IMG/VR virus record: IMGVR_UViG_3300036767_000929
Coordinates: 1-8,268 of that record
Length of the DNA stretch: 8,268 nt
Strand: one strand, 5' to 3'
DNA from: a virus
Shown here piece after piece: positions 1 to 8,268 of this stretch. The stretch's first letter is position 1. Each line of letters opens with the position of its first letter. Made by a program: the position numbers and the translations under genes. The notes below the pieces were generated by a model that made no database searches, had not been told where the DNA came from, and saw only the letters and a list, made by a program, of their open reading frames with translations.

Positions 1-127
1 ACATCGGTTCGCCGGTCGTCAAGAAAGCAGACTTACGAGTCTTCGAATGTTACCGATCCACAGCAACCGGTGAAGCTAAATCGTCTAACGAAAATAAGAA
101 TATTTTTAATGATCCAAAGCTTAGAGT
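1..127. repeat. Left copy of the exact 127-bp terminal direct repeat (identical to 8142-8268)
   Basis: Base-by-base comparison: acatcggttcgccggtcgtcaag...gatccaaagcttagagt is present at both ends. Confidence 0.97.
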
Positions 128-599
128 ATTTCTTTCAGTTGCGCTTTTTGCTTTGTTCGTTTTTATCTACGCTCTGTGGGGTGCTGTTGAAAGGTATTCG
201 GACCGTATCAACCAGAATACTGAAGCCAGCGTTACTTCTTCTCCTGCGACTCCTGCTGTCGTTGCTACTTCTGATCCTTCTGGCCAGGTTGATCCGTTAC
301 CTACTGAGGTTCCTGATCGCCTGACTGTTCCTCTTAATTCCTTGCTCTCTGGTCGTGAGTTGTTTTTTGCTGGTTCATTTTTTGGCCGTCATTACTTCAC
401 CGCAATAGGCGACAAAAGCCAGCTTACTTTTACTGATTTTGATTTCGAATCTGCCGGCTTCAGCGTTGATGTCCTCTCTGATTGTCTGGCAATTCTTCGA
501 TCTTCTGAGTCCGTTACTTACGCCACTTGCTTACCAGACACAGATGATCAAAAGGATCGCTCTGTGGCTGTGTCAGATGCGCCAGAACGGATTTTTTGA
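1..599 (+). CDS. zot: 3' part of the Zot/pI-family assembly ATPase gene, continuing 7559..8268 across the circular junction. Codon phase starts at base 3 and the stop TGA is at 597-599.
   Basis: The open frame from base 3 is the same phase as 7559..8268 after subtracting 8141. It encodes a transmembrane segment FLSVALFALFVFIYALWGAV (about 129-188) followed by a roughly 135-aa C-terminal domain. This is the N-terminal ATPase / TM / periplasmic layout of pI/Zot. The joined gene is 1182 nt (393 aa). Confidence 0.9.
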   Translation, partial: IGSPVVKKADLRVFECYRSTATGEAKSSNENKNIFNDPKLRVFLSVALFALFVFIYALWGAVERYSDRINQNTEASVTSSPATPAVVATSDPSGQVDPLPTEVPDRLTVPLNSLLSGRELFFAGSFFGRHYFTAIGDKSQLTFTDFDFESAGFSVDVLSDCLAILRSSESVTYATCLPDTDDQKDRSVAVSDAPERIF

Positions 600-856
600 A
601 TACATTGTTAGTAGTGGTTCAGATTTATCTGAACAAGAGGTAGCGCAGCGTAGGACGTGAGTCCTGACCCTGTGTTCAAGAACTGAGGCACGAAGTTTTT
701 GTGCACATGGCCAGCTCTGCTGGCAGCCCACGGCGCGGGGCGCTTAACGATCAAGCGAACAGCGCAGGAGGCAAGCGCCCCGCGCTACGTCTCTGTAACA
801 CGTAGTTTAAAAGGGGGATTACCCTCGATGTTCTCGACTAAAAAAGGAATTTCGGT
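600..856. promoter_or_regulatory. Main intergenic region between zot and rep with clustered stem-loops; candidate replication origin(s), packaging signal and rep promoter
   Basis: Non-coding 257 bp. Hairpins read directly: 617-623/628-634 (7 bp, loop ttta), 651-656/661-666, 710-715/719-724 (6 bp, loop tct), 733-745/773-785 (13 bp perfect) and 785-790/800-805 (6 bp). It sits immediately upstream of rep, as the IG region does in other inoviruses. Confidence 0.6.
733..785. repeat. Perfect 13-bp GC-rich inverted repeat gcgcggggcgctt / aagcgccccgcgc with a 27-nt loop
   Basis: Arms 733-745 and 773-785 are exact reverse complements. This is the strongest predicted structure in the window. Confidence 0.9.
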
Positions 857-2206
857 ATGGCACGGTACGAAAATAAGAAACCTAACCGCTCTGGTTCAGT
901 GTTTACTAATGATCGGGGCTCTATCATTTCTGACTTATCATCAGTCCGTTTTCTTTTCCGTGGTGTCGATACTATTCGACAGTTGTATAACTGCTCTGTA
1001 CGACCTGAGATCTTTGACGCAGTGACTAACCACTGGGAAACCGCAAAAGATGACGTGATTATCCTGCAAGGCATGGAGTTCAAGCTTTCATCGTCGGGTA
1101 AGGCGGCCGGGTATAAGTACATCCTCAAAAATCTGGAAGCGGGCGTTATCGTTCTGTTCAAGTCCATGTACTGTGAGGCTGACAAGCAAGGGCCACACAT
1201 CAAGATAGAGGCAACGCCTCAACTGATTCAGGAACTCGGGTTACAGAAGCTGACCAATTACCTGAGACAAGTCGCGTCGATCTTTGCTGACACTCTTGAG
1301 GCCTCTGGCGTCGCTGTTCATCTGGCCTGTGACTTTAAAGGCTGGGAACCTCCCCAGGACTTTGAATCCAGTCTTGTTACCCGCTCTAAGCGAAATCTTC
1401 GGGTGAATGCGTTAACCGCTGCCCACAATCAATCAGTCTCTGAAGTTGCCTTGGTCTATGGTCAGGGCCAGACATACATGTTCGGTGAGTCGGGATCTCT
1501 CCAGTTCTGCCTGTATGAAAAGAGTGCTGAAGCCATCAAGTCCCGTAAGCTCGAGTTCTGCGAATCGCTATGGTCGCAAGTGCCCTCGGTCGATGATCCC
1601 AGCAAGCCAGAATACAACGACGGTTCAGACGGTACGGAAGCAGATACGGTCAGAAGGGTAGAGTTCAGGATTCACCAGAGTGTTATCAAAGAATTCGAAC
1701 ATGGCCATTTTAACGTAACTCAGCAACTCGACGAAAAGGGCAACATAGTTTCGCCGGGGGAGTTGTGTTGTATTCGAGAAGCGCGTGATCTGATTCCTCA
1801 CCTTCAAGGCCTTTGGGAATACTGCCTCAATAACTTTCGGTATCAGTACAGCACCACCTATGTTCATCCTCTATGGTCCATGCTGTCAGACGATGTTGAG
1901 TGGTTCGGGTTTGCTGAAGGGTGGACGTACAAGCGCAGTCAAAAAAAGTCCGTTGATGGGGTATCCAATCGCAACGTGGCCATGTGGTTGGGCAACTGGC
2001 TCCGGATTGCTGCAGCCAAAGGCTTGAAAACCTCGTTCGTGGTGAACCAGATCATGTCCGCGGGTGCTGATTCCATGGTGGCTGACTATTTCGGAGTAAG
2101 GCTATACGGTAATACCAATGAGGTGGTGTCTCTGCTGACTGAGTTCGTAGAGAAACGCATGAGGGATCATAGGCTGAACGGGGTAGGAGGGCTGAAAGTT
2201 GCGTAA
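857..2206 (+). CDS. Rolling-circle replication initiator (Rep_trans / RstA-like, gpII functional analogue), 449 aa
   Basis: ATG at 857 lies 8 nt after aagga (844-848). It is the first long ORF after the IG region. Motifs recalled from pT181 RepC/RepD-type initiators: VHLACDF (1316-1336, compare R-x-D-x-A-x-D), GESGSLQFCLYEK (putative catalytic Tyr220, codon 1514-1516, compare RIYNK/RIYDK) and RRVEFRIHQS (1652-1681, compare WRVEIELKRD). Confidence 0.78.
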   Translation: MARYENKKPNRSGSVFTNDRGSIISDLSSVRFLFRGVDTIRQLYNCSVRPEIFDAVTNHWETAKDDVIILQGMEFKLSSSGKAAGYKYILKNLEAGVIVLFKSMYCEADKQGPHIKIEATPQLIQELGLQKLTNYLRQVASIFADTLEASGVAVHLACDFKGWEPPQDFESSLVTRSKRNLRVNALTAAHNQSVSEVALVYGQGQTYMFGESGSLQFCLYEKSAEAIKSRKLEFCESLWSQVPSVDDPSKPEYNDGSDGTEADTVRRVEFRIHQSVIKEFEHGHFNVTQQLDEKGNIVSPGELCCIREARDLIPHLQGLWEYCLNNFRYQYSTTYVHPLWSMLSDDVEWFGFAEGWTYKRSQKKSVDGVSNRNVAMWLGNWLRIAAAKGLKTSFVVNQIMSAGADSMVADYFGVRLYGNTNEVVSLLTEFVEKRMRDHRLNGVGGLKVA

Positions 2207-3029
2207 TCTCAGTGATGCTATCCGTCTCTGGTACAAAGTACATGGCCATACCCTGAAGGATGCCAAGTACCGCTTCATGCGTACCTTAGCGATTGCTGAA
2301 CGTATGGATGATCCACTACTCACTGAATTCAGTGCTCGTACGTTTGCCGATTACCGCGCAGATCGGGCGGGTAAGGTAAGCAATGCCACACTGAACCATG
2401 AACTCAGATACCTTAGAGCGGTGTTCTCTGAACTCGTCAGGCTCCAATACCTGACAGAAAACCCACTGGCTCAGGTACGTCAGTTCGCGGTCACGGAAAC
2501 CGAACTCGCCTACCTTGATAAATTCCAGATAGAAACCCTGTTCGCATCGTTGCGGGAAGCAAAGAACCAACACGCCTACTGGGTCGCAAGGATCTGCCTG
2601 AGTACCGGTGCCCGTTGGATTGAAGCGGAAAGCCTGAAGGCCCATCAACTGGTTCAGAAGCCAAAGCCAGGTATCCGGTACGTGAATACAAAGAACGGGA
2701 AGAACCGCTTCGTTCCTGTAGATCCAGTCTTTCTGGCTGAATTGAGAATGGCCACACGGCCAGACAAAGATAAGAAGCTGTTCAAGTCCTGCCGATCGGC
2801 GTTCCGGTATGCGGTAAAGAGGGCGGGGTTAGAGTTTCCAGAACAGCAGATGACCCATATTCTGAGACACACCTACGCCAGTCACTTCCTTATGAACGGC
2901 GGGGATCTCTTCGTACTACAGCGGGTTCTTGGGCATTCGGACATCAAGACAACGATGAGATATAGCCACTTCTCCCCAGATTATCTGGATCAGGCTTCTA
3001 CCTTCGCACCCACTGTTAAAGGAGTTTAA
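2199..3029 (+). CDS. int: Tyrosine recombinase / phage integrase, 276 aa, TTG start
   Basis: Canonical catalytic signature: CLSTGARWIEAESLK (box I Arg), HILRHTYASH (H-x-x-R), LGHSDIKTTMRYSHF (His plus nucleophile Tyr255, codon 2961-2963). AGGAGG at 2185-2190 sits 8 nt before TTG 2199. The first in-frame ATG is at 2277. The catalytic region resembles the P2 Int C-terminal region as I recall it. Confidence 0.93.
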   Translation: MRNLSDAIRLWYKVHGHTLKDAKYRFMRTLAIAERMDDPLLTEFSARTFADYRADRAGKVSNATLNHELRYLRAVFSELVRLQYLTENPLAQVRQFAVTETELAYLDKFQIETLFASLREAKNQHAYWVARICLSTGARWIEAESLKAHQLVQKPKPGIRYVNTKNGKNRFVPVDPVFLAELRMATRPDKDKKLFKSCRSAFRYAVKRAGLEFPEQQMTHILRHTYASHFLMNGGDLFVLQRVLGHSDIKTTMRYSHFSPDYLDQASTFAPTVKGV

Positions 3030-3031
3030 CT

Positions 3032-3253
3032 ATGAATTTATCTATCTCGCTTTCAGAACTAATGGCTCTAGCTCTTCTAGATCCAATTTGTTCAGTTGGT
3101 CTTTATCACGACGATAAGCGCTATTCCGTACCCTGTGGCCTTCTGTATCACGCCGTGAAGGATCTCTCAAGTTACCCTGAAGTATTTTGGCCTCTCCCTG
3201 ATCCCGACTTGCACTTCGAAGTTGTCGAGAGTCTTTCTCAACTCCCTTTCTGA
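3032..3253 (+). CDS. Hypothetical 73-aa protein directly downstream of int
   Basis: ATG 3032 is preceded by aaaggag (3019-3025) and starts 2 nt after the int stop. No recognisable motif. An antisense ORF (3042..3281) overlaps it but starts inside the terminator hairpin. Confidence 0.5.
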   Translation: MNLSISLSELMALALLDPICSVGLYHDDKRYSVPCGLLYHAVKDLSSYPEVFWPLPDPDLHFEVVESLSQLPF

Positions 3254-3257
3254 GTCC

Positions 3258-3284
3258 AAAAAAAAGGATGCCTTTAGGCATCCT
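3258..3284 (-). terminator. Rho-independent terminator for minus-strand transcription
   Basis: 8-bp stem aggatgcc (3265-3272) / ggcatcct (3277-3284), loop ttta. It is preceded on the plus strand by A8 (3258-3265), which gives hairpin plus U-tract on the minus strand. It lies downstream of the minus-strand operon 3983..3405. Confidence 0.75.
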
Positions 3285-3308
3285 CTATCAATAACTGTCG
3301 GCTTGTAC

Positions 3309-3343
3309 AGTAACCGAAGTAACCACTAACACGTAAGTTACTG
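3309..3343. repeat. Short repeats in the attP arm: agtaacc direct repeat (3309-3315, 3319-3325) and cagtaac/gttactg inverted repeat (3308-3314, 3337-3343)
   Basis: Read directly. The direct repeats are 10 bp apart (one helical turn) and next to the tRNA-like core. A role as recombinase or accessory-factor sites is inference only. Confidence 0.35.
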
Positions 3344-3352
3344 AAAAATAAG

Positions 3353-3397
3353 TGGTAGCTATGACTGGACTTGAACCAGTGACCCCAGCATTATGAA
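3353..3397 (-). other. attP core: 3' half of a tRNA (anticodon loop with CAT, variable loop, T-arm, acceptor 3' strand, discriminator A, CCA). Not a complete tRNA gene.
   Basis: The minus strand reads ttcataa-tgctg-gggtc-actgg-ttcaagt-ccagt-catagct-a-cca. The T-stem actgg/ccagt pairs, the T-loop is ttcaagt, and there is a CCA end. It closely parallels the 3' half of elongator tRNA-Met as I recall it. Upstream sequence (gtgtt...) cannot pair with tgctg, and no agctatg acceptor partner exists. Confidence 0.8.
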
Positions 3398-3404
3398 AAC
3401 ACGG

Positions 3405-3644
3405 TTAGATTTCTCCTCTATCCATTGCTTTAAATGCCTGATTCGCGGTTAGTATCTTCTTCTCACTCTTCTTTCTGTCTTCTACTTGGCGTGCTCGTAC
3501 CAATGCTTGATACGCAATTCCGTTGTTGAATGCTATTCCTCCGGATGGCTTCCATCCTTCCATCATGTGAATCTGCACGTCTTTTTCTATCTGCCTGCAT
3601 TCTGCTGTGTCTTTGATCAGCTTGTATTCGTATACTGTCTTCAT
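3405..3644 (-). CDS. DUF1737-like small protein (79 aa), second gene of the immunity operon
   Basis: ATG at 3644-3642 has aagga 8 nt upstream on the minus strand. YEYKLI...IEKDVQIHMMEGWKPSGGIAFNNGIAYQALV matches the DUF1737 pattern I remember (short alpha/beta domain with GW-x-P-x-GG ... YQA). A basic C-terminal tail follows. Confidence 0.6.
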   Translation of the reverse strand: MKTVYEYKLIKDTAECRQIEKDVQIHMMEGWKPSGGIAFNNGIAYQALVRARQVEDRKKSEKKILTANQAFKAMDRGEI

Positions 3645-3713
3645 ATCCTTATTCCTTGAGCTTGAGTCGTTATAGCTTCCAACTGTCCGCGACTCGTTTT
3701 GCCAATCTTCTAC

Positions 3714-3983
3714 CTACGGCGTTTTCTTTAGCTGCCGTTGGGCCTTCTTAGTCATTGGGCTAATTTGCCCAGCTTCTGGTATTTCTTTTCCTGTCGAAAG
3801 CCAATAACCGTATTCCGGCCAGATCTCGGATAGTGCTTCCACTTCAGAAGCTCGCATTTCAACTGTGCCAGCCTTGACCGATCCCCAGCGCCTCCGGCCA
3901 ATACCTGTCTCTTCTTCAAGCCACGGCAGCTTCACTCCCTCTGACTCAAGCAATATCAAAAACCTATCAAGGCAACCTGACAT
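3714..3983 (-). CDS. Phage repressor-like HTH (Cro/CI/XRE-type) protein, 89 aa
   Basis: It is transcribed divergently from the morphogenesis operon, the position of Pf4r/RstR. The segment LEEETGIGRRRWGSVKAGTVEMRASEVEALSEIWPEYGYWLSTGKE has the helix-turn-helix ... W-L-x-T-G ending typical of CI/Cro-family domains. There is no SD before the ATG. Confidence 0.68.
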   Translation of the reverse strand: MSGCLDRFLILLESEGVKLPWLEEETGIGRRRWGSVKAGTVEMRASEVEALSEIWPEYGYWLSTGKEIPEAGQISPMTKKAQRQLKKTP

Positions 3984-3995
3984 ATAGATAAATAC

Positions 3996-4037
3996 AATGA
4001 CAAATTATTTGTTATCAATTGCAAATAGTTTGTCATT
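3996..4037. promoter_or_regulatory. 42-bp near-perfect palindrome; candidate operator of the repressor
   Basis: The left arm aatgacaaattatttg (3996-4011) matches the reverse complement of caaatagtttgtcatt (4022-4037) at 15 of 16 positions, with a 10-bp spacer. It is centred in the divergent intergenic region. An extra half-site-like copy gtttgtc occurs at 4050-4056, 22 bp after 4028-4034. Confidence 0.6.
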
Positions 4038-4047
4038 CTCCTATTGT
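4019..4047 (+). promoter_or_regulatory. Candidate sigma70 promoter for the rightward (late/morphogenesis) operon
   Basis: TTGCAA (4019-4024), 17-bp spacer, TATTGT (4042-4047). The spacer and -35 overlap the right arm of the palindrome. A candidate leftward promoter is TTGATA (complement of 4013-4018), 18 bp, TATTTA (complement of 3989-3994). Confidence 0.45.
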
Positions 4048-4053
4048 GTGTTT

Positions 4054-4075
4054 GTCCGGTACTGCAATACCGGAT
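4054..4075 (+). other. Stem-loop in the 5' leader of the rightward operon
   Basis: ccggta (4056-4061) pairs with taccgg (4068-4073), loop ctgcaa. The stem is extendable by t4055-a4074 and g4054-t4075. Confidence 0.4.
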
Positions 4076-4147
4076 TGCTGTTAAACGTAACCAACAATCC
4101 TACCCTTAAACGCGATAAGTGTCGCGCGGGTGGCATAGGGGCACATC

Positions 4148-4453
4148 ATGGACGTAAGGCAATTAGTGGACGACATCGCCGGGTCTTCTCCTTTTCCTGA
4201 GCTGTTTACCATCGCCATTCCCTCTGAAGATGCAAAGCGTGAGTTAGTCGCCTGCATCAAAGACCAGTCCGTTATGTATCCCGAAGTCGCTCTTCGCGCC
4301 GCTATCGCGCTCGCCTCTGATCCTGAGTCCTCACTAGATGACGTTATTGAATTCTTATCGGGTGTTCGTCAGGAGCTGAACGCGTTGGGTCTGGAACGTC
4401 TTGGTATTGCTCATTGCGCGGCGGTACCACAAGTAAACACTGGTTCAAGGTGA
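4148..4453 (+). CDS. Hypothetical acidic 101-aa protein, first gene of the rightward operon
   Basis: ATG 4148 lies 6 nt after agggg (4137-4141) in a clean ORF. No motif recognised. Confidence 0.6.
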   Translation: MDVRQLVDDIAGSSPFPELFTIAIPSEDAKRELVACIKDQSVMYPEVALRAAIALASDPESSLDDVIEFLSGVRQELNALGLERLGIAHCAAVPQVNTGSR

Positions 4454-4458
4454 TCTCC

Positions 4459-4692
4459 ATGTCTGTCGCATTGAAGAGTGTTTGCTCTGAAAAATTTATT
4501 TTGTCTTCTATCCGTGACGCCTTTCGGGCTCAGGATCGTACGTGTGTTCGTAAGTACAACACTGTTCTTACTCTAACTGTTCGTATCTCTGGTGATCTGC
4601 CGGAGCTGTTCGTAAAAAACAACGTACTTGATTGCAGAATGACGCTTGCTCAACTGATTCGTTTTTTGGATGGAATCGATCCGAATAAATGA
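4459..4692 (+). CDS. Hypothetical 77-aa protein. The ORF track gives 4414, but ATG 4459 is preferred.
   Basis: ATG 4459 follows aggtg (4446-4450) and avoids overlap with the upstream gene, whose stop is at 4451-4453. No motif recognised. Confidence 0.55.
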   Translation: MSVALKSVCSEKFILSSIRDAFRAQDRTCVRKYNTVLTLTVRISGDLPELFVKNNVLDCRMTLAQLIRFLDGIDPNK

Positions 4693-4764
4693 AAACACAA
4701 TGCGGCATAGAAAAGCGGCTGTGCTGCTGGGATTAACTCCGCTAACAAGAAAAGGTAACTACCA

Positions 4765-5055
4765 ATGAAAGCAACAATGACACTGCAAGTCCTCGGCTGT
4801 GCTTCCTACAACATGGAAAGCGGCAACATTTCTCAGGTGTTCGCGATGGTGAACGACCCTGAAAACAAGAACATAAAAGGCTTCGCCGTCGCGAAAATGT
4901 CGGCTGAATCCTCGGTAGTGGCCTCACTACCTGCTGACCCTAATCAGTACCCTTTCACTGCTGACTTTGAGGTTCACAACAAAGTAGCGGGTGGCAAGCT
5001 GACCCAGCACATCCAGCGTTACATTCCATCAGCTAAATCGCCTAAGGCCGGCTAA
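4765..5055 (+). CDS. Putative ssDNA-binding protein (gpV analogue), 96 aa
   Basis: The call rests on position (immediately upstream of the small membrane/coat genes), size near 90-100 aa and a sequence that looks beta-rich. SD aaagg is at 4751-4755. No diagnostic motif was verified. Confidence 0.4.
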   Translation: MKATMTLQVLGCASYNMESGNISQVFAMVNDPENKNIKGFAVAKMSAESSVVASLPADPNQYPFTADFEVHNKVAGGKLTQHIQRYIPSAKSPKAG

Positions 5056-5297
5056 TGGAGCTCGTTTATGTGTGTGATTCATCCCAGGACGTCACTACTG
5101 GAACCTATGCTCAATGTGATAATTGGATCAAGGTGGATTACACACAGCTAGTTCGGACGGCGGACGTAACGCGGCTAGAAGATCTGCTCGTTACCTTCTC
5201 CCCTGAAACGTTCGCGGCAATAGTCGCGGCAACCTTGGTGACGTTTATTACCGGCCATGTTGCTGGAGTAATCGTCAAGTTAATGAATAGAACCTGA
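5055..5297 (+). CDS. Small membrane protein (80 aa) with a C-terminal TM helix; possible minor coat or assembly protein
   Basis: The start overlaps the upstream stop (TAATG at 5053-5057). The C-terminal hydrophobic segment is FAAIVAATLVTFITGHVAGVIV, followed by basic KLMNRT. A roughly 83-aa ORF precedes coaB at the same position in Pf1-type phages. Confidence 0.5.
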   Translation: MELVYVCDSSQDVTTGTYAQCDNWIKVDYTQLVRTADVTRLEDLLVTFSPETFAAIVAATLVTFITGHVAGVIVKLMNRT

Positions 5298-5311
5298 AAA
5301 GGACTATAACC

Positions 5312-5554
5312 ATGAAAAACAAACTCGCTTCTCTGAAAAACCGTCATATCAACCGTCTGAAAGCTGCTGGCTTCACCGCTGTAGGTACTGCCGTTGGCGC
5401 GCCTGCATTCGCTGACGAAGCAACCCAGACAGCCATCACTGCTGCCTATACTGACGGCGGCGCTGATCTTACCGTTGCTGTAGCTGGTCTGATCGGACTC
5501 GTTGCTATTGTGGTCGGTGTTGGCATGATCGTAAGCATGCTCCGTAAGGGCTAA
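5312..5554 (+). CDS. coaB: Major coat protein precursor (pVIII / Pf1 CoaB type), 80 aa
   Basis: Signal peptide ending APAFA|DE. The predicted 46-aa mature protein has an acidic N-terminus, a hydrophobic core LIGLVAIVVGVGMIV and a basic end SMLRKG. From memory, the Pf1 coat ends IYSMLRKA and is also 46 aa mature. SD aaagga is at 5298-5303. Confidence 0.88.
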   Translation: MKNKLASLKNRHINRLKAAGFTAVGTAVGAPAFADEATQTAITAAYTDGGADLTVAVAGLIGLVAIVVGVGMIVSMLRKG

Positions 5555-5556
5555 GT

Positions 5557-5634
5557 ATGCTCATCACGGTCATTCTCGCGGTGTTGTTCGGTTTTTCTTT
5601 TCTGATCGGGTTTTACACCGGGCGGATGTCCTGA
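5557..5634 (+). CDS. 25-codon hydrophobic mini-ORF (MLITVILAVLFGFSFLIGFYTGRMS); candidate pVII/pIX-like or PfsE-like small membrane protein
   Basis: It is not in the supplied ORF track because it is too short. ATG 5557 is 2 nt after the coaB stop and 6 nt after aaggg (5546-5550). It has a single TM-length hydrophobic stretch, and its stop TGA (5632-5634) runs into the terminator stem. Confidence 0.4.
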   Translation: MLITVILAVLFGFSFLIGFYTGRMS

Positions 5635-5654
5635 GGCCCTTCGGGGCCTTTTTT
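5634..5654 (+). terminator. Rho-independent terminator after the coat-gene block
   Basis: Stem aggccc (5634-5639) / gggcct (5644-5649), loop ttcg, followed by a T-run (5649-5654) and a second T7 (5660-5666). Ff phages have the same arrangement, with a terminator after gene VIII. Confidence 0.85.
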
Positions 5655-5685
5655 ATTGCTTTTTTTATGTATTCGTGGGGTTGTT

Positions 5686-7170
5686 ATGAAATTCTTTTTC
5701 GTCTTCTTTTTCATCACTCTTCCTCTTGTTTCTCATTCCCAAACAGTTTCTGAAGCTTGCCCGGGTGGTTACGCTGGTTCGTTTCAGGCCGGTCTAGGCT
5801 CATTTTGGGAAGCTACTTGTGGTGTGAATACTGGCAAGACAGATTATGCCGGTAATGGTGAATTTTTCTGTAGTCCAACCGGTTATGTTCACCCCACATA
5901 TGGTGATAGACAATACCAGTGGTTTTATACCAGTGTTTGCAATCCGAATCCCGGCAATCCTGATCCTAGTGATCCATCAGATCCCGGCGGCCCTTCAGAT
6001 CCCGGCGACCCATCAGACCCTAGCGACCCTTCGGACCCTAGTGATCCATCAGATCCCGGTACTGGCGGTGGTGATCCCGGTACTGGCGGTGGCGATCCCG
6101 GTACTGGCGGTGGCGATCCCGGTACTGGTGGTGGCAATCCCGGTACTGGCGGTGGTGATCCCGGTACTGGTGGTGGTGATCCCGGTACTGGTGGTGGTGA
6201 TCCCGGTACTGGTGGTGGTGATCCCGGTACTGGTGGTGGTGATGGTGATGGTACTGGCGGTGGTGATCCCGGTACTGGTGATGGTGTTGGTGACGGTACT
6301 AGTGGTGATACAGGTACAGATGGTCCCGGTAATAATCTCAACTGTCCTGACGGATACGTTCTAGAGGGTTCTGATTGTGTTGCTACTTTAGATAACGAAT
6401 CAGAATGTCCTGCTCTCTATCAATGGGACCCAGATTTCAACGAATGTTACGGTCCTCCCGTTGATGACACCGTCGACGATAATCCTGATAGTCCAAATGA
6501 TCCGATTGATCCAAATGATACAGATACAGAAATCGCTTCCGTTGATATTACGAACCCCGGTGATATCAGTACGCCGATTGTAGAATCCGTAAGCTCTGGT
6601 ACTTTTTCTGTAGTAGAGGCGGTTAATAACGCCTCTTCAAACAACACGTCAGCGATAAATAATCAGACAAACGCTATCACTAATGCTATTTCAGCGGCTG
6701 GTCAGGACGGTGATGGATCTGAGACTGATCTTACCGCTACTAACAATCTTCTGTCCGAAGCTAACGAACTGTCTCGACAAGGCAACGGAACTCTTAACAG
6801 CATCGATGACACACTCTCAGAGAGTAAAGACACTTTGGATGGCATAGCGTGCGTTTTTGGTTCTGGTGAAGATTGTGAGAAAACCGGCGCATTCACTAAA
6901 GATGGTTTTCCGTCTCTGGATGCTCGTGTTCAAGCTGCTCAATCAGAATATCTCGCAGACTTAGATACTTACATGAGCCAGATGTCCGGTTTGTTCAGTA
7001 TTCAAGTCAATCAATCCTCGCCTTTCGTCGATGATGTCAGAGAAGTTCGCGGCGTCGGTATTAATTTCGGAAGCTCTGCAATCGCTGAAGGTGTTCAGTT
7101 TTTACCAGAACTCATACTTCTCTTTTTTTCTGTGAGTGCGGCAATTGTCATGGTTAGGGGTATCGTATGA
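5686..7170 (+). CDS. pIII-like adsorption / minor coat protein, 494 aa from ATG 5686 (the track's TTG 5656 lies in the terminator T-run)
   Basis: Signal peptide MKFFFVFFFITLPLVSHS|Q. A 4-Cys N-terminal domain is followed by a long Asp/Pro/Gly/Ser/Thr-rich repeat linker, a second 4-Cys domain (NCPDGYVLEGSDC...ECPALYQWDPDFNEC) and a C-terminal membrane anchor LPELILLFFSVSAAIVMV. The position between the coat and pVI-like genes fits. Confidence 0.8.
   Translation: MKFFFVFFFITLPLVSHSQTVSEACPGGYAGSFQAGLGSFWEATCGVNTGKTDYAGNGEFFCSPTGYVHPTYGDRQYQWFYTSVCNPNPGNPDPSDPSDPGGPSDPGDPSDPSDPSDPSDPSDPGTGGGDPGTGGGDPGTGGGDPGTGGGNPGTGGGDPGTGGGDPGTGGGDPGTGGGDPGTGGGDGDGTGGGDPGTGDGVGDGTSGDTGTDGPGNNLNCPDGYVLEGSDCVATLDNESECPALYQWDPDFNECYGPPVDDTVDDNPDSPNDPIDPNDTDTEIASVDITNPGDISTPIVESVSSGTFSVVEAVNNASSNNTSAINNQTNAITNAISAAGQDGDGSETDLTATNNLLSEANELSRQGNGTLNSIDDTLSESKDTLDGIACVFGSGEDCEKTGAFTKDGFPSLDARVQAAQSEYLADLDTYMSQMSGLFSIQVNQSSPFVDDVREVRGVGINFGSSAIAEGVQFLPELILLFFSVSAAIVMVRGIV
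5941..6330 (+). repeat. In-frame low-complexity tandem repeats inside the pIII-like gene: DPS/DPG 9-nt type (5941-6051), nine 21-nt units encoding (D/N)PGTGGG (6052-6240), then a degenerate tail
   Basis: The units gatcccggtactgg(c/t)ggtgg(t/c) were counted directly. Units 6157-6240 are four identical copies. The others differ only at Gly wobble positions or by one Asp-to-Asn change. Confidence 0.95.
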
Positions 7171-7562
7171 AGAAGTTTTTAATGTTCGTCGTGCTCTTTC
7201 TGCCACTCTTCGCGTTTGCTGAAGGCTCGGCTCCGGGCAGTGACCCCGAAGTAAGCATGCTCTCTGTATTCGATGCTTTGTTTACCACTGACGCTAACGG
7301 ATTTTTCGAAACCTTGTTCGAGCGTGCGGCTGCTTGGATGATTCTCTCCTGGATAGAATTTAAAGTCTGGCTGCTGTCTTTTTCTTTCGACGTTGCTTTA
7401 CTCGTTGTTGAGTCTCTGGATATTACTGGTCAGATAGAGAGCCAGCTTTCCGGTCTGTCGGCCACTATGTATGCGTGGGTGTCTTATCTTCGGATACTTG
7501 AAGGGGTGAACATGCTCCTCTCTGCGTACGGCTCGGTGATGATTATGAGGCTCGTCTCGTGA
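7167..7562 (+). CDS. pVI-like minor coat / membrane protein, 131 aa
   Basis: Its position between the pIII-like gene and zot matches Ace in CTXphi and pVI in Ff. It is hydrophobic with several TM-like segments. The ATGA overlap with the pIII stop (7167-7170) and the GTGA overlap with the zot start (7559-7562) indicate translational coupling. Confidence 0.6.
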   Translation: MKKFLMFVVLFLPLFAFAEGSAPGSDPEVSMLSVFDALFTTDANGFFETLFERAAAWMILSWIEFKVWLLSFSFDVALLVVESLDITGQIESQLSGLSATMYAWVSYLRILEGVNMLLSAYGSVMIMRLVS

Positions 7563-8268
7563 CGGCGGTGATCCATCACGGCCCCCCAGGTTCGTACAAG
7601 TCCTTCGCTATTGTTCAGGACGTCGTAATTCCTGCACTAATGAAAGGCCGTACCGTGGTGACTAATATCCGCGGTTTGGATGACATAGACCGGATTGCAC
7701 AGGCAATGGACTTGGATATACCAGATCGTACTGAGCTAATACACGTCGGCCAGCGTTCAAAAGACGATTACGAAAAAATGGCCAAGTTTCATCACTGGGT
7801 TCCAGTGGGCGCACTGATCTGCATCGATGAAGCTCAAGCTGTCTATCCAACGCGACTAAGATCTCTCTCTGTCTTTGATGTGCCTGAAGGGCAAGAGCGC
7901 GACAACTACAACGGCGAAGCTATGCCCGTCGATGTTGAACGCGCCTTTGATATGCACCGACATTTCAATTGGGATATCTATATTTCCACTCCGAACATAG
8001 CAAAGATCCATAAAGAAATTCGCGGCGTGTGCGAGTACGCTTACAGGCATCGGGATATGTCCGGGCTGCTGCCGTGGATAAAGAACCAATGGCGGGAATT
8101 CAAACATGACAGCGAACAGTCAGGTAAATCAGTCAGTCACTACATCGGTTCGCCGGTCGTCAAGAAAGCAGACTTACGAGTCTTCGAATGTTACCGATCC
8201 ACAGCAACCGGTGAAGCTAAATCGTCTAACGAAAATAAGAATATTTTTAATGATCCAAAGCTTAGAGT
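7559..8268 (+). CDS. zot: 5' part of the Zot/pI-family assembly ATPase gene (GTG start; runs off the window end and continues at base 128 of the circle)
   Basis: The N-terminus (M)TAVIHHGPPGSYKSF parallels CTXphi Zot MSIFIHHGAPGSYKTS as I recall it. Walker A is GPPGSYKS (7580-7603) and Walker B is LICIDEAQ (about 7814-7837). gagg at 7547-7550 lies 8 nt before the GTG. No stop occurs before the window end. Confidence 0.92.
   Translation, partial: MTAVIHHGPPGSYKSFAIVQDVVIPALMKGRTVVTNIRGLDDIDRIAQAMDLDIPDRTELIHVGQRSKDDYEKMAKFHHWVPVGALICIDEAQAVYPTRLRSLSVFDVPEGQERDNYNGEAMPVDVERAFDMHRHFNWDIYISTPNIAKIHKEIRGVCEYAYRHRDMSGLLPWIKNQWREFKHDSEQSGKSVSHYIGSPVVKKADLRVFECYRSTATGEAKSSNENKNIFNDPKLR
8142..8268. 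repeat. Right copy of the exact 127-bp terminal direct repeat (identical to 1-127)
   Basis: Base-by-base identity with 1-127. Confidence 0.97.

Follow-up and report, generated by a model that had tools for sequence, protein, structure and literature searches.

Integration at a tRNA-Met gene by a Pf-like filamentous phage of marine Thalassolituus and other Oceanospirillaceae

The DNA analysed here (IMG/VR record IMGVR_UViG_3300036767_000929, positions 1 to 8,268; the whole stretch of 8,268 nucleotides is called the window in what follows) comes from a filamentous phage and carries on its minus strand, 322 nt downstream of the stop codon of the integrase gene int at 3029, a short block that reads as the 3′ part of a tRNA gene with a CAU anticodon. 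The best explanation, which we hold with very high confidence, is that this block (3352-3397) is the core of the phage attachment site attP of a temperate Pf-like phage of marine Thalassolituus/Oceanospirillaceae, and that the phage integrase (Int) recombines it with the tRNA-Met(CAU) gene of the host, which is regenerated in the process. The full quartet of attachment sites was found, i.e., attP, the bacterial site attB and the two prophage junctions attL and attR, along with a precise 8446-bp insertion and a regenerated tRNA gene.

A whole prophage is present in the metagenome contig L054 (contigs and genome stretches are designated by such numbers throughout). Two direct copies of the core, at 2207 and 10653, lie 8446 bp apart in this contig with every phage gene between them; a complete tRNA-Met occupies 2175-2251, and the flanks are 99.1% and 99.8% identical to those of L018, an empty site with a single core. 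The Rfam tRNA model gives the regenerated tRNA of L054 a score of 70.7 bits, versus 23.4 bits for the fragment at its attR.

Both junctions were also recovered separately. On the attR side, the exact protein of ORF79, the open reading frame (ORF) next to the core, is encoded on 23 public contigs, and where a contig passes the core, the order is ORF79, core, and then host genes (fructosamine kinase, PNPOx, RDD, LptF/G, and PepA). Seven of these junction sequences (L001-L005, L007, and L008) are identical to the window, in minus-strand alignment, from the repressor/ORF79 side to ...CATAGCTACCAC, and past the core they switch to CGAATTCTTAAGGCCCCG...CGGGGCTTTTTTTT, a typical tRNA-gene terminator of the host; the attR junction is also found in L053 and L054. 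On the attL side, L014 (an IMG/VR contig) and L054 show the host leader, a complete tRNA-Met, the phage flank CTTATTTTTCAG..., and then the int side. Read from the phage, L014 has zot, rep, and int genes that are 91-92% identical to those of the window; the phage flank ...CTGAAAAATAAG comes next and leads to a tRNA-Met that ARAGORN calls as complete, beyond which lies the host leader. Empty attB sites were found in L018 (the Oceanospirillaceae metagenome-assembled genome (MAG) RS342), as well as in L048 and L049 (Thalassolituus maritimus); in the empty sites, the host sequence to the left in L014 and that to the right in L001 and L002 meet at a single tRNA-Met. The core is identical at 46 of 46 positions among attP, attB, attL, and attR, and the sequence that the window shares with attL ends at 3397, and that shared with attR at 3352. 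The attL, attR, and attB junctions, together with L054, thus identify 3352-3397 as the attP core and indicate that integration restores an unchanged tRNA gene.

The composition of the block, from the anticodon loop to the CCA end, is given in Table 1 with the other features of the window. Including the one base past the CCA, it is identical at all 46 positions to the 3′ part of complete tRNA-Met genes (those called by ARAGORN in L012, L014-L016, L018-L049, and L054), an identity far beyond chance. ARAGORN calls no tRNA gene in the window, where the Rfam tRNA model (RF00005) aligns to 3429-3356 with 23.2 bits (E=0.31) and does not reach its gathering score of 29; this sub-threshold alignment joins the genuine 3′ half to the 3′ end of the ORF79 coding sequence. 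A decayed complete tRNA at attP was also considered and rejected, the 90 nt left of the core being no more similar to the 90 nt left in the host gene than shuffled sequences are (p=0.6, local alignment against 2000 shuffles). In the same comparison, the right arms of attP and attB show no similarity beyond shuffles (p=0.3-0.65).

A preliminary description of this DNA, made from the letters alone, had already proposed that a filamentous phage carries, about 320 bp downstream of int, an attP built from the 3′ part of a CAU tRNA whose 5′ half is absent; it had predicted that no complete tRNA would be called, that a host tRNA gene would be regenerated, and that the prophage would end with int/orf73 on one side and the repressor on the other. 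The recovered sequences agree with it on each of these points. Indeed, the junctions are precise and have matching empty sites, the complete tRNA-Met stands at the attL of L014 and L054 beside the orf73/int end, and the displaced 3′ fragment stands beside the ORF79/repressor end. The match to a host tRNA is exact, the segment is tRNA-like, and all junctions lie at tRNA-Met, none of them at dif.

Table 1. Features of the window around the attP core and elsewhere in the phage genome.
Feature	Position	Strand	Basis or remark
attP core, identity block with attB	3352..3397	-	tRNA-Met positions 32-76 (anticodon loop to CCA) plus one downstream base (C)
Anticodon loop TTCATAA, anticodon CAT at 3395-3393	3397-3391	-	read from sequence
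Anticodon-stem 3′ strand TGCTG	3390-3386	-	read from sequence
Variable loop GGGTC	3385-3381	-	read from sequence
T arm ACTGG / TTCAAGT / CCAGT, perfectly paired	3380-3364	-	read from sequence
Acceptor 3′ strand CATAGCT	3363-3357	-	read from sequence
Discriminator A	3356	-	read from sequence
CCA 3′ end	3355-3353	-	read from sequence
Anticodon-loop heptamer TTCATAA, putative 7-bp crossover (overlap) segment	3391..3397	-	proposed
int, tyrosine recombinase of P2/HP1/Pf type, 276 aa	2199..3029	+	Pfam Int_N 2.6e-27, Phage_integrase 4.1e-18
orf73, variable cargo gene between int and attP	3032..3253	+	no family match
Intrinsic-terminator-like hairpin AGAGGATGCCTAAAGGCATCCTTT plus T run	3255..3286	-	terminator scan; putative function
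ORF79, 79 aa	3405..3644	-	stop codon 7 nt before core; last phage gene before attR
Putative repressor/transcriptional regulator, 89 aa	3714..3983	-	phrog_147 transcriptional regulator, E=3.3e-17
Conserved non-coding block TACGTCTCTGTAACACGTAGTTTAAAAGGGGG, zot-rep intergenic, candidate origin or nick site	786..821	+	kept in L013, L015, L016, and the L046 mini-element; putative function
Replication initiation protein, Pf-like, 449 aa	857..2206	+	phrog_1159 E=2.6e-104; 30% identity to Pf 62-2 replication protein, E=3e-65
Terminal redundancy	8142..8268	+	identical to 1-127

In the mechanism that we propose, the phage tyrosine integrase, presumably the catalyst of the reaction, would recombine the attP core with its identical 46-bp counterpart in the host gene for the elongator-type tRNA-Met(CAU). 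As the core spans from the first anticodon-loop base to one base past the CCA, the phage copy replaces the 3′ 45 nt of the host gene; attL carries an unchanged complete tRNA-Met, and the displaced host 3′ fragment lies at the opposite end of the prophage as attR.

The strand exchange itself probably takes place in the anticodon loop: the first base of this loop is also the first of the identity block, as would be expected if the exchange occurred there and the phage had to supply everything 3′ of the loop. This start is common to the window, the diverged relative L013, and a small element of L046 (see below), and the annotated repeat of the Pseudomonas phage Pf 62-2 starts one base before the first loop base. 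Islander sorts the att sites of tRNA genes by subsite (anticodon loop, T loop, or T/acceptor junction), with 3760 of its 3919 islands carrying a 3′ tDNA fragment and 2083 of the 3919 being anticodon-centred (PMC4383910). With an identity running from the first loop base (3397) to one base after the CCA, the present site falls into the anticodon-loop sublocation (class A). The crossover would lie within the 7-bp TTCATAA, which is flanked in attB by the anticodon-stem inverted repeat CAGCA/TGCTG, and the two arms of this stem would act as the inverted core sites of the integrase. HP1 and 186, the closest characterised integrase relatives, integrate into tRNA genes, exchanging strands in anticodon stem-loops.

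The exchange might instead occur in the T loop or at the T-stem/acceptor junction, with the symmetric T arm ACTGG/CCAGT providing the core sites in both attP and attB. The T arm is indeed a perfect inverted repeat in both partners, while the symmetry of the anticodon stem is missing from attP, and T-loop and junction sites form the other common class (1836 of the 3919 Islander islands, PMC4383910). We nevertheless find this location unlikely: a crossover in the T loop leaves some 17 needless extra bases in the identity block, the 5′ edge of which coincides, within one base, with the first anticodon-loop base in four diverged elements. A crossover-mapping scan of metagenomes and viral contigs, based on the left arm and the core start, added two junction contigs, including L054, and their cores are all identical. 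Two soil-type metagenome contigs (L055:2187-2209 and L056:369-391) contain an exact 22-23-nt match to the left arm and core, TAACCGTGTTTTCATAATGCTG, with no tRNA and no other similarity; we judged these matches to be due to chance.

All the marks of a tRNA-targeting att site are found, namely, a 3′ tRNA fragment in attP, a bounded prophage with its empty site, and an adjacent R-H-R-Y tyrosine integrase. Int is matched by the structure of the HP1 integrase catalytic domain (1AIH) at E=5.8e-41 and by the PDB entry 5C6K (molecule name "Integrase"), which we take to be the P2 integrase, at E=6.3e-36. Its presumed catalytic residues are R139, H220, R223, H246, and Y255; the TGARW, HxLRHT, and RYxH motifs, kept in the alignment to 1AIH, place R139, H220, R223, and Y255. 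The nearest phage homologues are the Pseudomonas Pf integrases (47-49% identity, 49% for Pf 62-2), followed by those of P2-like phages, such as 186 (46% identity across 272 residues). Among Pf phages, the five integrase types are mutually only 40-62% identical, and the integrase type correlates completely with the integration site (PMC7549136).

One has to weigh several points that speak against this reading. The core is invariant in every copy of attP, attB, attL, and attR recovered, with no polymorphism to place the strand exchange, and the attP half-site to the left of the loop (GTGTT) fails to mirror TGCTG, unlike the CAGCA of the tRNA. Int is without the N-terminal arm-binding region of the Pf integrases: its alignment begins at Pf residue 57, and the missing ~55 N-terminal residues are those that give a weak Arm-DNA-bind_4 match in Pf Int. 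A longer int ORF is ruled out by an in-frame stop at 2193, a search for N-terminal-like integrase sequence elsewhere in the window found none, and a related integrase in L022 (298 aa) is likewise without this region. No excisionase homologue was detected in the window by Pfam (E<=10) or by BLASTP against the Pf excisionase; the ORF at 4148-4453, at the position equivalent to that of Pf Xis-Met (HTH_17), has no Pfam match and reaches E=3.6 in BLASTP against the Pf 62-2 excisionase. The search for arm-type repeats near the core gave nothing beyond short matches present twice (for example, TCCTCTATCAAT at 3281-3292 and TCCTCTATCCAT at 3414-3425), which are probably fortuitous. Lastly, the circular assembly could, in principle, stem from a tandem prophage junction and not from a free circle.

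Other explanations dispute the nature of the block or of its surroundings. The segment could be part of a phage-encoded tRNA or tRNA-like RNA, instead of or besides a DNA site, its 3′ half pairing with the 3′ end of ORF79 (AGCAATG...TAGA/TCTA). The Rfam tRNA model does align with the full 3429-3356, where 6 of the 7 acceptor pairs form along with a D-stem-like helix of 4 bp, and does the same at the attR of L054. This idea is, however, highly improbable in view of a score of 23 bits that stays under the gathering score, when a real copy attains 70.7 bits, and of the absence of any ARAGORN call; moreover, the left arm resembles the tRNA 5′ half no more than shuffles do (p=0.6) and is ORF79 coding sequence, kept neither in the relative L013 nor in the L046 element.

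We give equally little credit to an assembly artefact, in which the attP layout would be a chimeric join over the repeated tRNA core of a prophage, with no real circle behind it. Logan contigs (SRR25584961) that are 100% identical to the window do break at the core (L009 ends at 3352 and L011 at 3381), which shows that the core is an assembly repeat. The window, however, closes within zot by a 127-nt overlap and not at the core, and the attP join is the exact product expected of excision at the attL and attR of L054; even with a circle derived from a tandem prophage, the attB, attL, and attR data establish the role of the site. As for a CTXphi-like integration by the host XerC/XerD at dif, which would make the tRNA-like block a piece of incidentally captured host DNA, it is barely conceivable: although many inoviruses use XerCD/dif (PMC7549136), every recovered junction lies at the tRNA-Met core, with precise attL/attR and matching empty sites, and an intact phage integrase adjoins this core.

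The attP core reading leads to the host gene, whose complete sequence is GGCTATGTAGCTCAGCTGGTTAGAGCACAGCATTCATAATGCTGGGGTCACTGGTTCAAGTCCAGTCATAGCTACCA. A search for the exact 45-nt block, with one genome per species, returned 35 stretches of bacterial genome sequence, and the taxa that carry it are Thalassolituus, Bacterioplanes, Bacterioplanoides, Saccharospirillaceae, Arenicella, Kangiellaceae, and Francisella. The best E. coli counterpart, annotated as tRNA-Met, is 86-87% identical over all 77 nt and sits in the Met-Leu-Gln-Gln-Met-Gln-Gln tRNA cluster adjoining ubiF, home of the elongator genes metT and metU. The preliminary description had deduced from the block a host 5′ acceptor strand agctatg, with an A1-U72 pair, and this has to be corrected: the hosts have GGCTATG, which pairs with CATAGCT through a G1·U72 wobble (e.g., L018:5370-5446 and L049:6575-6651). 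Positions 2-7 read GCTATG in 38 complete copies, all from a gene starting with GGCTATG, and GCAATG in L034.

The sequences on either side of the core bear on what integration may do to local transcription. The terminator-like hairpin (3286-3263) and its T tail lie about 67-100 nt past the CCA on the tRNA strand and are kept in the attL of L014 and L054. This hairpin would serve as terminator for the repressor-ORF79 transcript in the free phage and for that of the regenerated tRNA-Met in the prophage, and the native tRNA terminator would land behind the phage repressor-ORF79 operon. Integration would, in other words, swap the two terminators. As a separate observation, the window flank CTTATT matches the native trailers of other hosts (L019, L038, and L047).

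The slot between int and attP, taken by orf73 in the window, holds an unrelated short sequence in L014 (5234-5325) and, in L054 (2354-2965), a gene for a 203-aa DNA-methyltransferase-like protein (phrog_757, E=5.4e-47), in a prophage that is otherwise ~92% identical. On the other side of the core, we did not keep for ORF79 the DUF1737 label given at first, the Pfam match being sub-threshold (12.4 bits for a cut-off of 24, E=0.15).

The first and last 127 nt of the window form an exact direct repeat (assembler overlap), from which we conclude that the assembly is circular and the true genome 8141 bp long; zot crosses the circle junction, and L011 runs unbroken over the window end. The filamentous-phage genes present are those of Zot, a DUF2523/Ace-like protein, the major coat protein (phrog_1859), a Pf-like replication protein, the integrase, and a regulator (phrog_147). 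The long Gly/Pro/Asp-rich ORF at 5656-7170 lies where Pf 62-2 has its adsorption protein CoaA and includes, at 5950-6310, a long DPGTGGG/DPSDPS repeat array, the DNA of which cross-matches itself and varies in length among relatives. Compared by megablast with the 50,697 genomes of deposited phages, the whole window has no match, hence no close described relative at the DNA level, and a literature search gave no paper connecting Thalassolituus with filamentous phages.

Two blocks of the zot-rep intergenic region are candidate replication-origin or packaging signals. The block at 786-821 has the motif TTACGT(C/G)(T/C)CTGTAACACGTAATTTAAAAGGGGG, with the inverted repeat TTACGT/ACGTAA, and is also found in L014, in the distant relatives L013, L015, and L016, and in L046; in the window copy, C replaces the first T, and G replaces one A. 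The other, CGTAGGACGTGAGTCCTGA (635-667), has an AGGAC/GTCCT hairpin and is common to the window, L014, L046, and L013.

Among known systems, the closest are the Pf-tRNA-Met phages of Pseudomonas aeruginosa (Pf6, Pf 62-2, and the PfAC series), which have the same order of zot, replication protein, integrase, and att, and the attP of which is likewise the 3′ part of an elongator-type tRNA-Met from the anticodon loop. The 51-bp terminal repeats annotated in Pf 62-2 read, in the tRNA orientation, ATTCATAATGCTGATGTCCCAGGTTCAAGTCCCGGTGTAGCCACCATATTT, i.e., the 3′ part of tRNA-Met from the anticodon loop; the attP of Pf6 is reported as a 46-bp tRNA-Met fragment, and 65 Pf-tRNA-Met prophages are described (Fiedoruk et al. 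2020, PMC7549136). The differences are as clear as the likeness: the Pf phages infect Pseudomonas and not marine Thalassolituus/Oceanospirillaceae; their genomes measure 11.5-13.6 kb in the listed records, versus 8.1 kb here; their Int has ~330 aa with the N-terminal arm-type region, versus 276 aa without it; and they encode an Xis-Met/HTH_17 excisionase divergent from the repressor, the homologue of which was not detected in the window phage. The core sequences differ as well, because the core follows the tRNA of the host.

The integrases of HP1, P2, and 186 share the type of catalytic domain of Int. They belong, however, to tailed phages, have an N-terminal arm-binding domain, and act on a complex attP with arm, integration host factor (IHF), and Cox/Xis sites, whereas the window phage has neither this domain nor convincing arm-type repeats. 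In the class A islands of Islander, the 3′ tDNA fragment restores the split gene, the regenerated gene and the displaced fragment mark the ends, and the integrase lies beside the regenerated tRNA (PMC4383910). The same is seen here, with no difference in principle, except that the element is a very small single-stranded DNA (ssDNA) filamentous phage and not a large island or a tailed prophage. Phages of the CTXphi/VGJphi type, integrative mobile elements exploiting Xer (IMEX), are also filamentous and also lysogenise by site-specific recombination; unlike the window phage, with its own integrase and its tRNA target, they have no integrase of their own and rely on the host XerCD at dif, in part by way of a folded ssDNA attP.

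The same tRNA-Met gene is occupied by other elements. A more distant inovirus lineage (L012, L015, L016, and L022:5832-8000), with ~65-67% DNA identity in rep and ~72% in int, adjoins it, for example, in a Saccharospirillaceae MAG. In this lineage, the phage flank after the CCA, CGAATT(C/T)TAAAGG followed by a hairpin, mimics the native host trailer, so that its identity block with attB is probably longer than that of the window phage.

An integrase-less element of 1.44 kb was also observed in this gene in a Thalassolituus sp. MAG (L046:2269-3832, JARGOI010000096.1). The full tRNA stands at one end of it and the same 46-nt core, in a second copy, at the other; the arm beside this second core resembles the left arm of the window attP (3398-3414). 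Two short non-coding blocks of this element are colinear with the zot-rep intergenic blocks 635-667 and 786-821 of the window, and its ORFs encode proteins of 152 aa (with a weak ribbon-helix-helix match), 82 aa, and 69 aa. Possibly, this is a satellite or miniphage that depends on a helper phage for Int, Rep, and packaging. One could go further and imagine a marine inovirus clade that has a stripped-down version of the P2/HP1/Pf module, with an arm-less integrase, no recognisable excisionase, and an attP of little more than a ~46-bp core, together with a satellite, the L046 element, exploiting this module. We put this forward as a speculation with rather low chances of being right; if true, integrase-encoding filamentous phages would include a helper with its satellite, and Int would be a tRNA-targeting integrase that is minimal in its natural form.

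The mechanism described here is ordinary and was already known from Pf phages; the novelty lies in the phage lineage and in its marine hosts. No concept has to be changed, as bacterial mobile elements most commonly integrate in just this way, with a 3′ fragment carried by the phage restoring the tRNA gene. The attP/attB pair and the compact 276-aa integrase make a possible small tool for site-specific integration. For the phage itself, the ends of the prophage are now defined to the base, and hosts can be assigned to an uncultured 8.1-kb marine filamentous phage, namely, Thalassolituus maritimus-like bacteria and a related lineage of Oceanospirillaceae; a tRNA-Met-targeting module akin to that of the Pseudomonas Pf phages is also found in oceanic Oceanospirillales.

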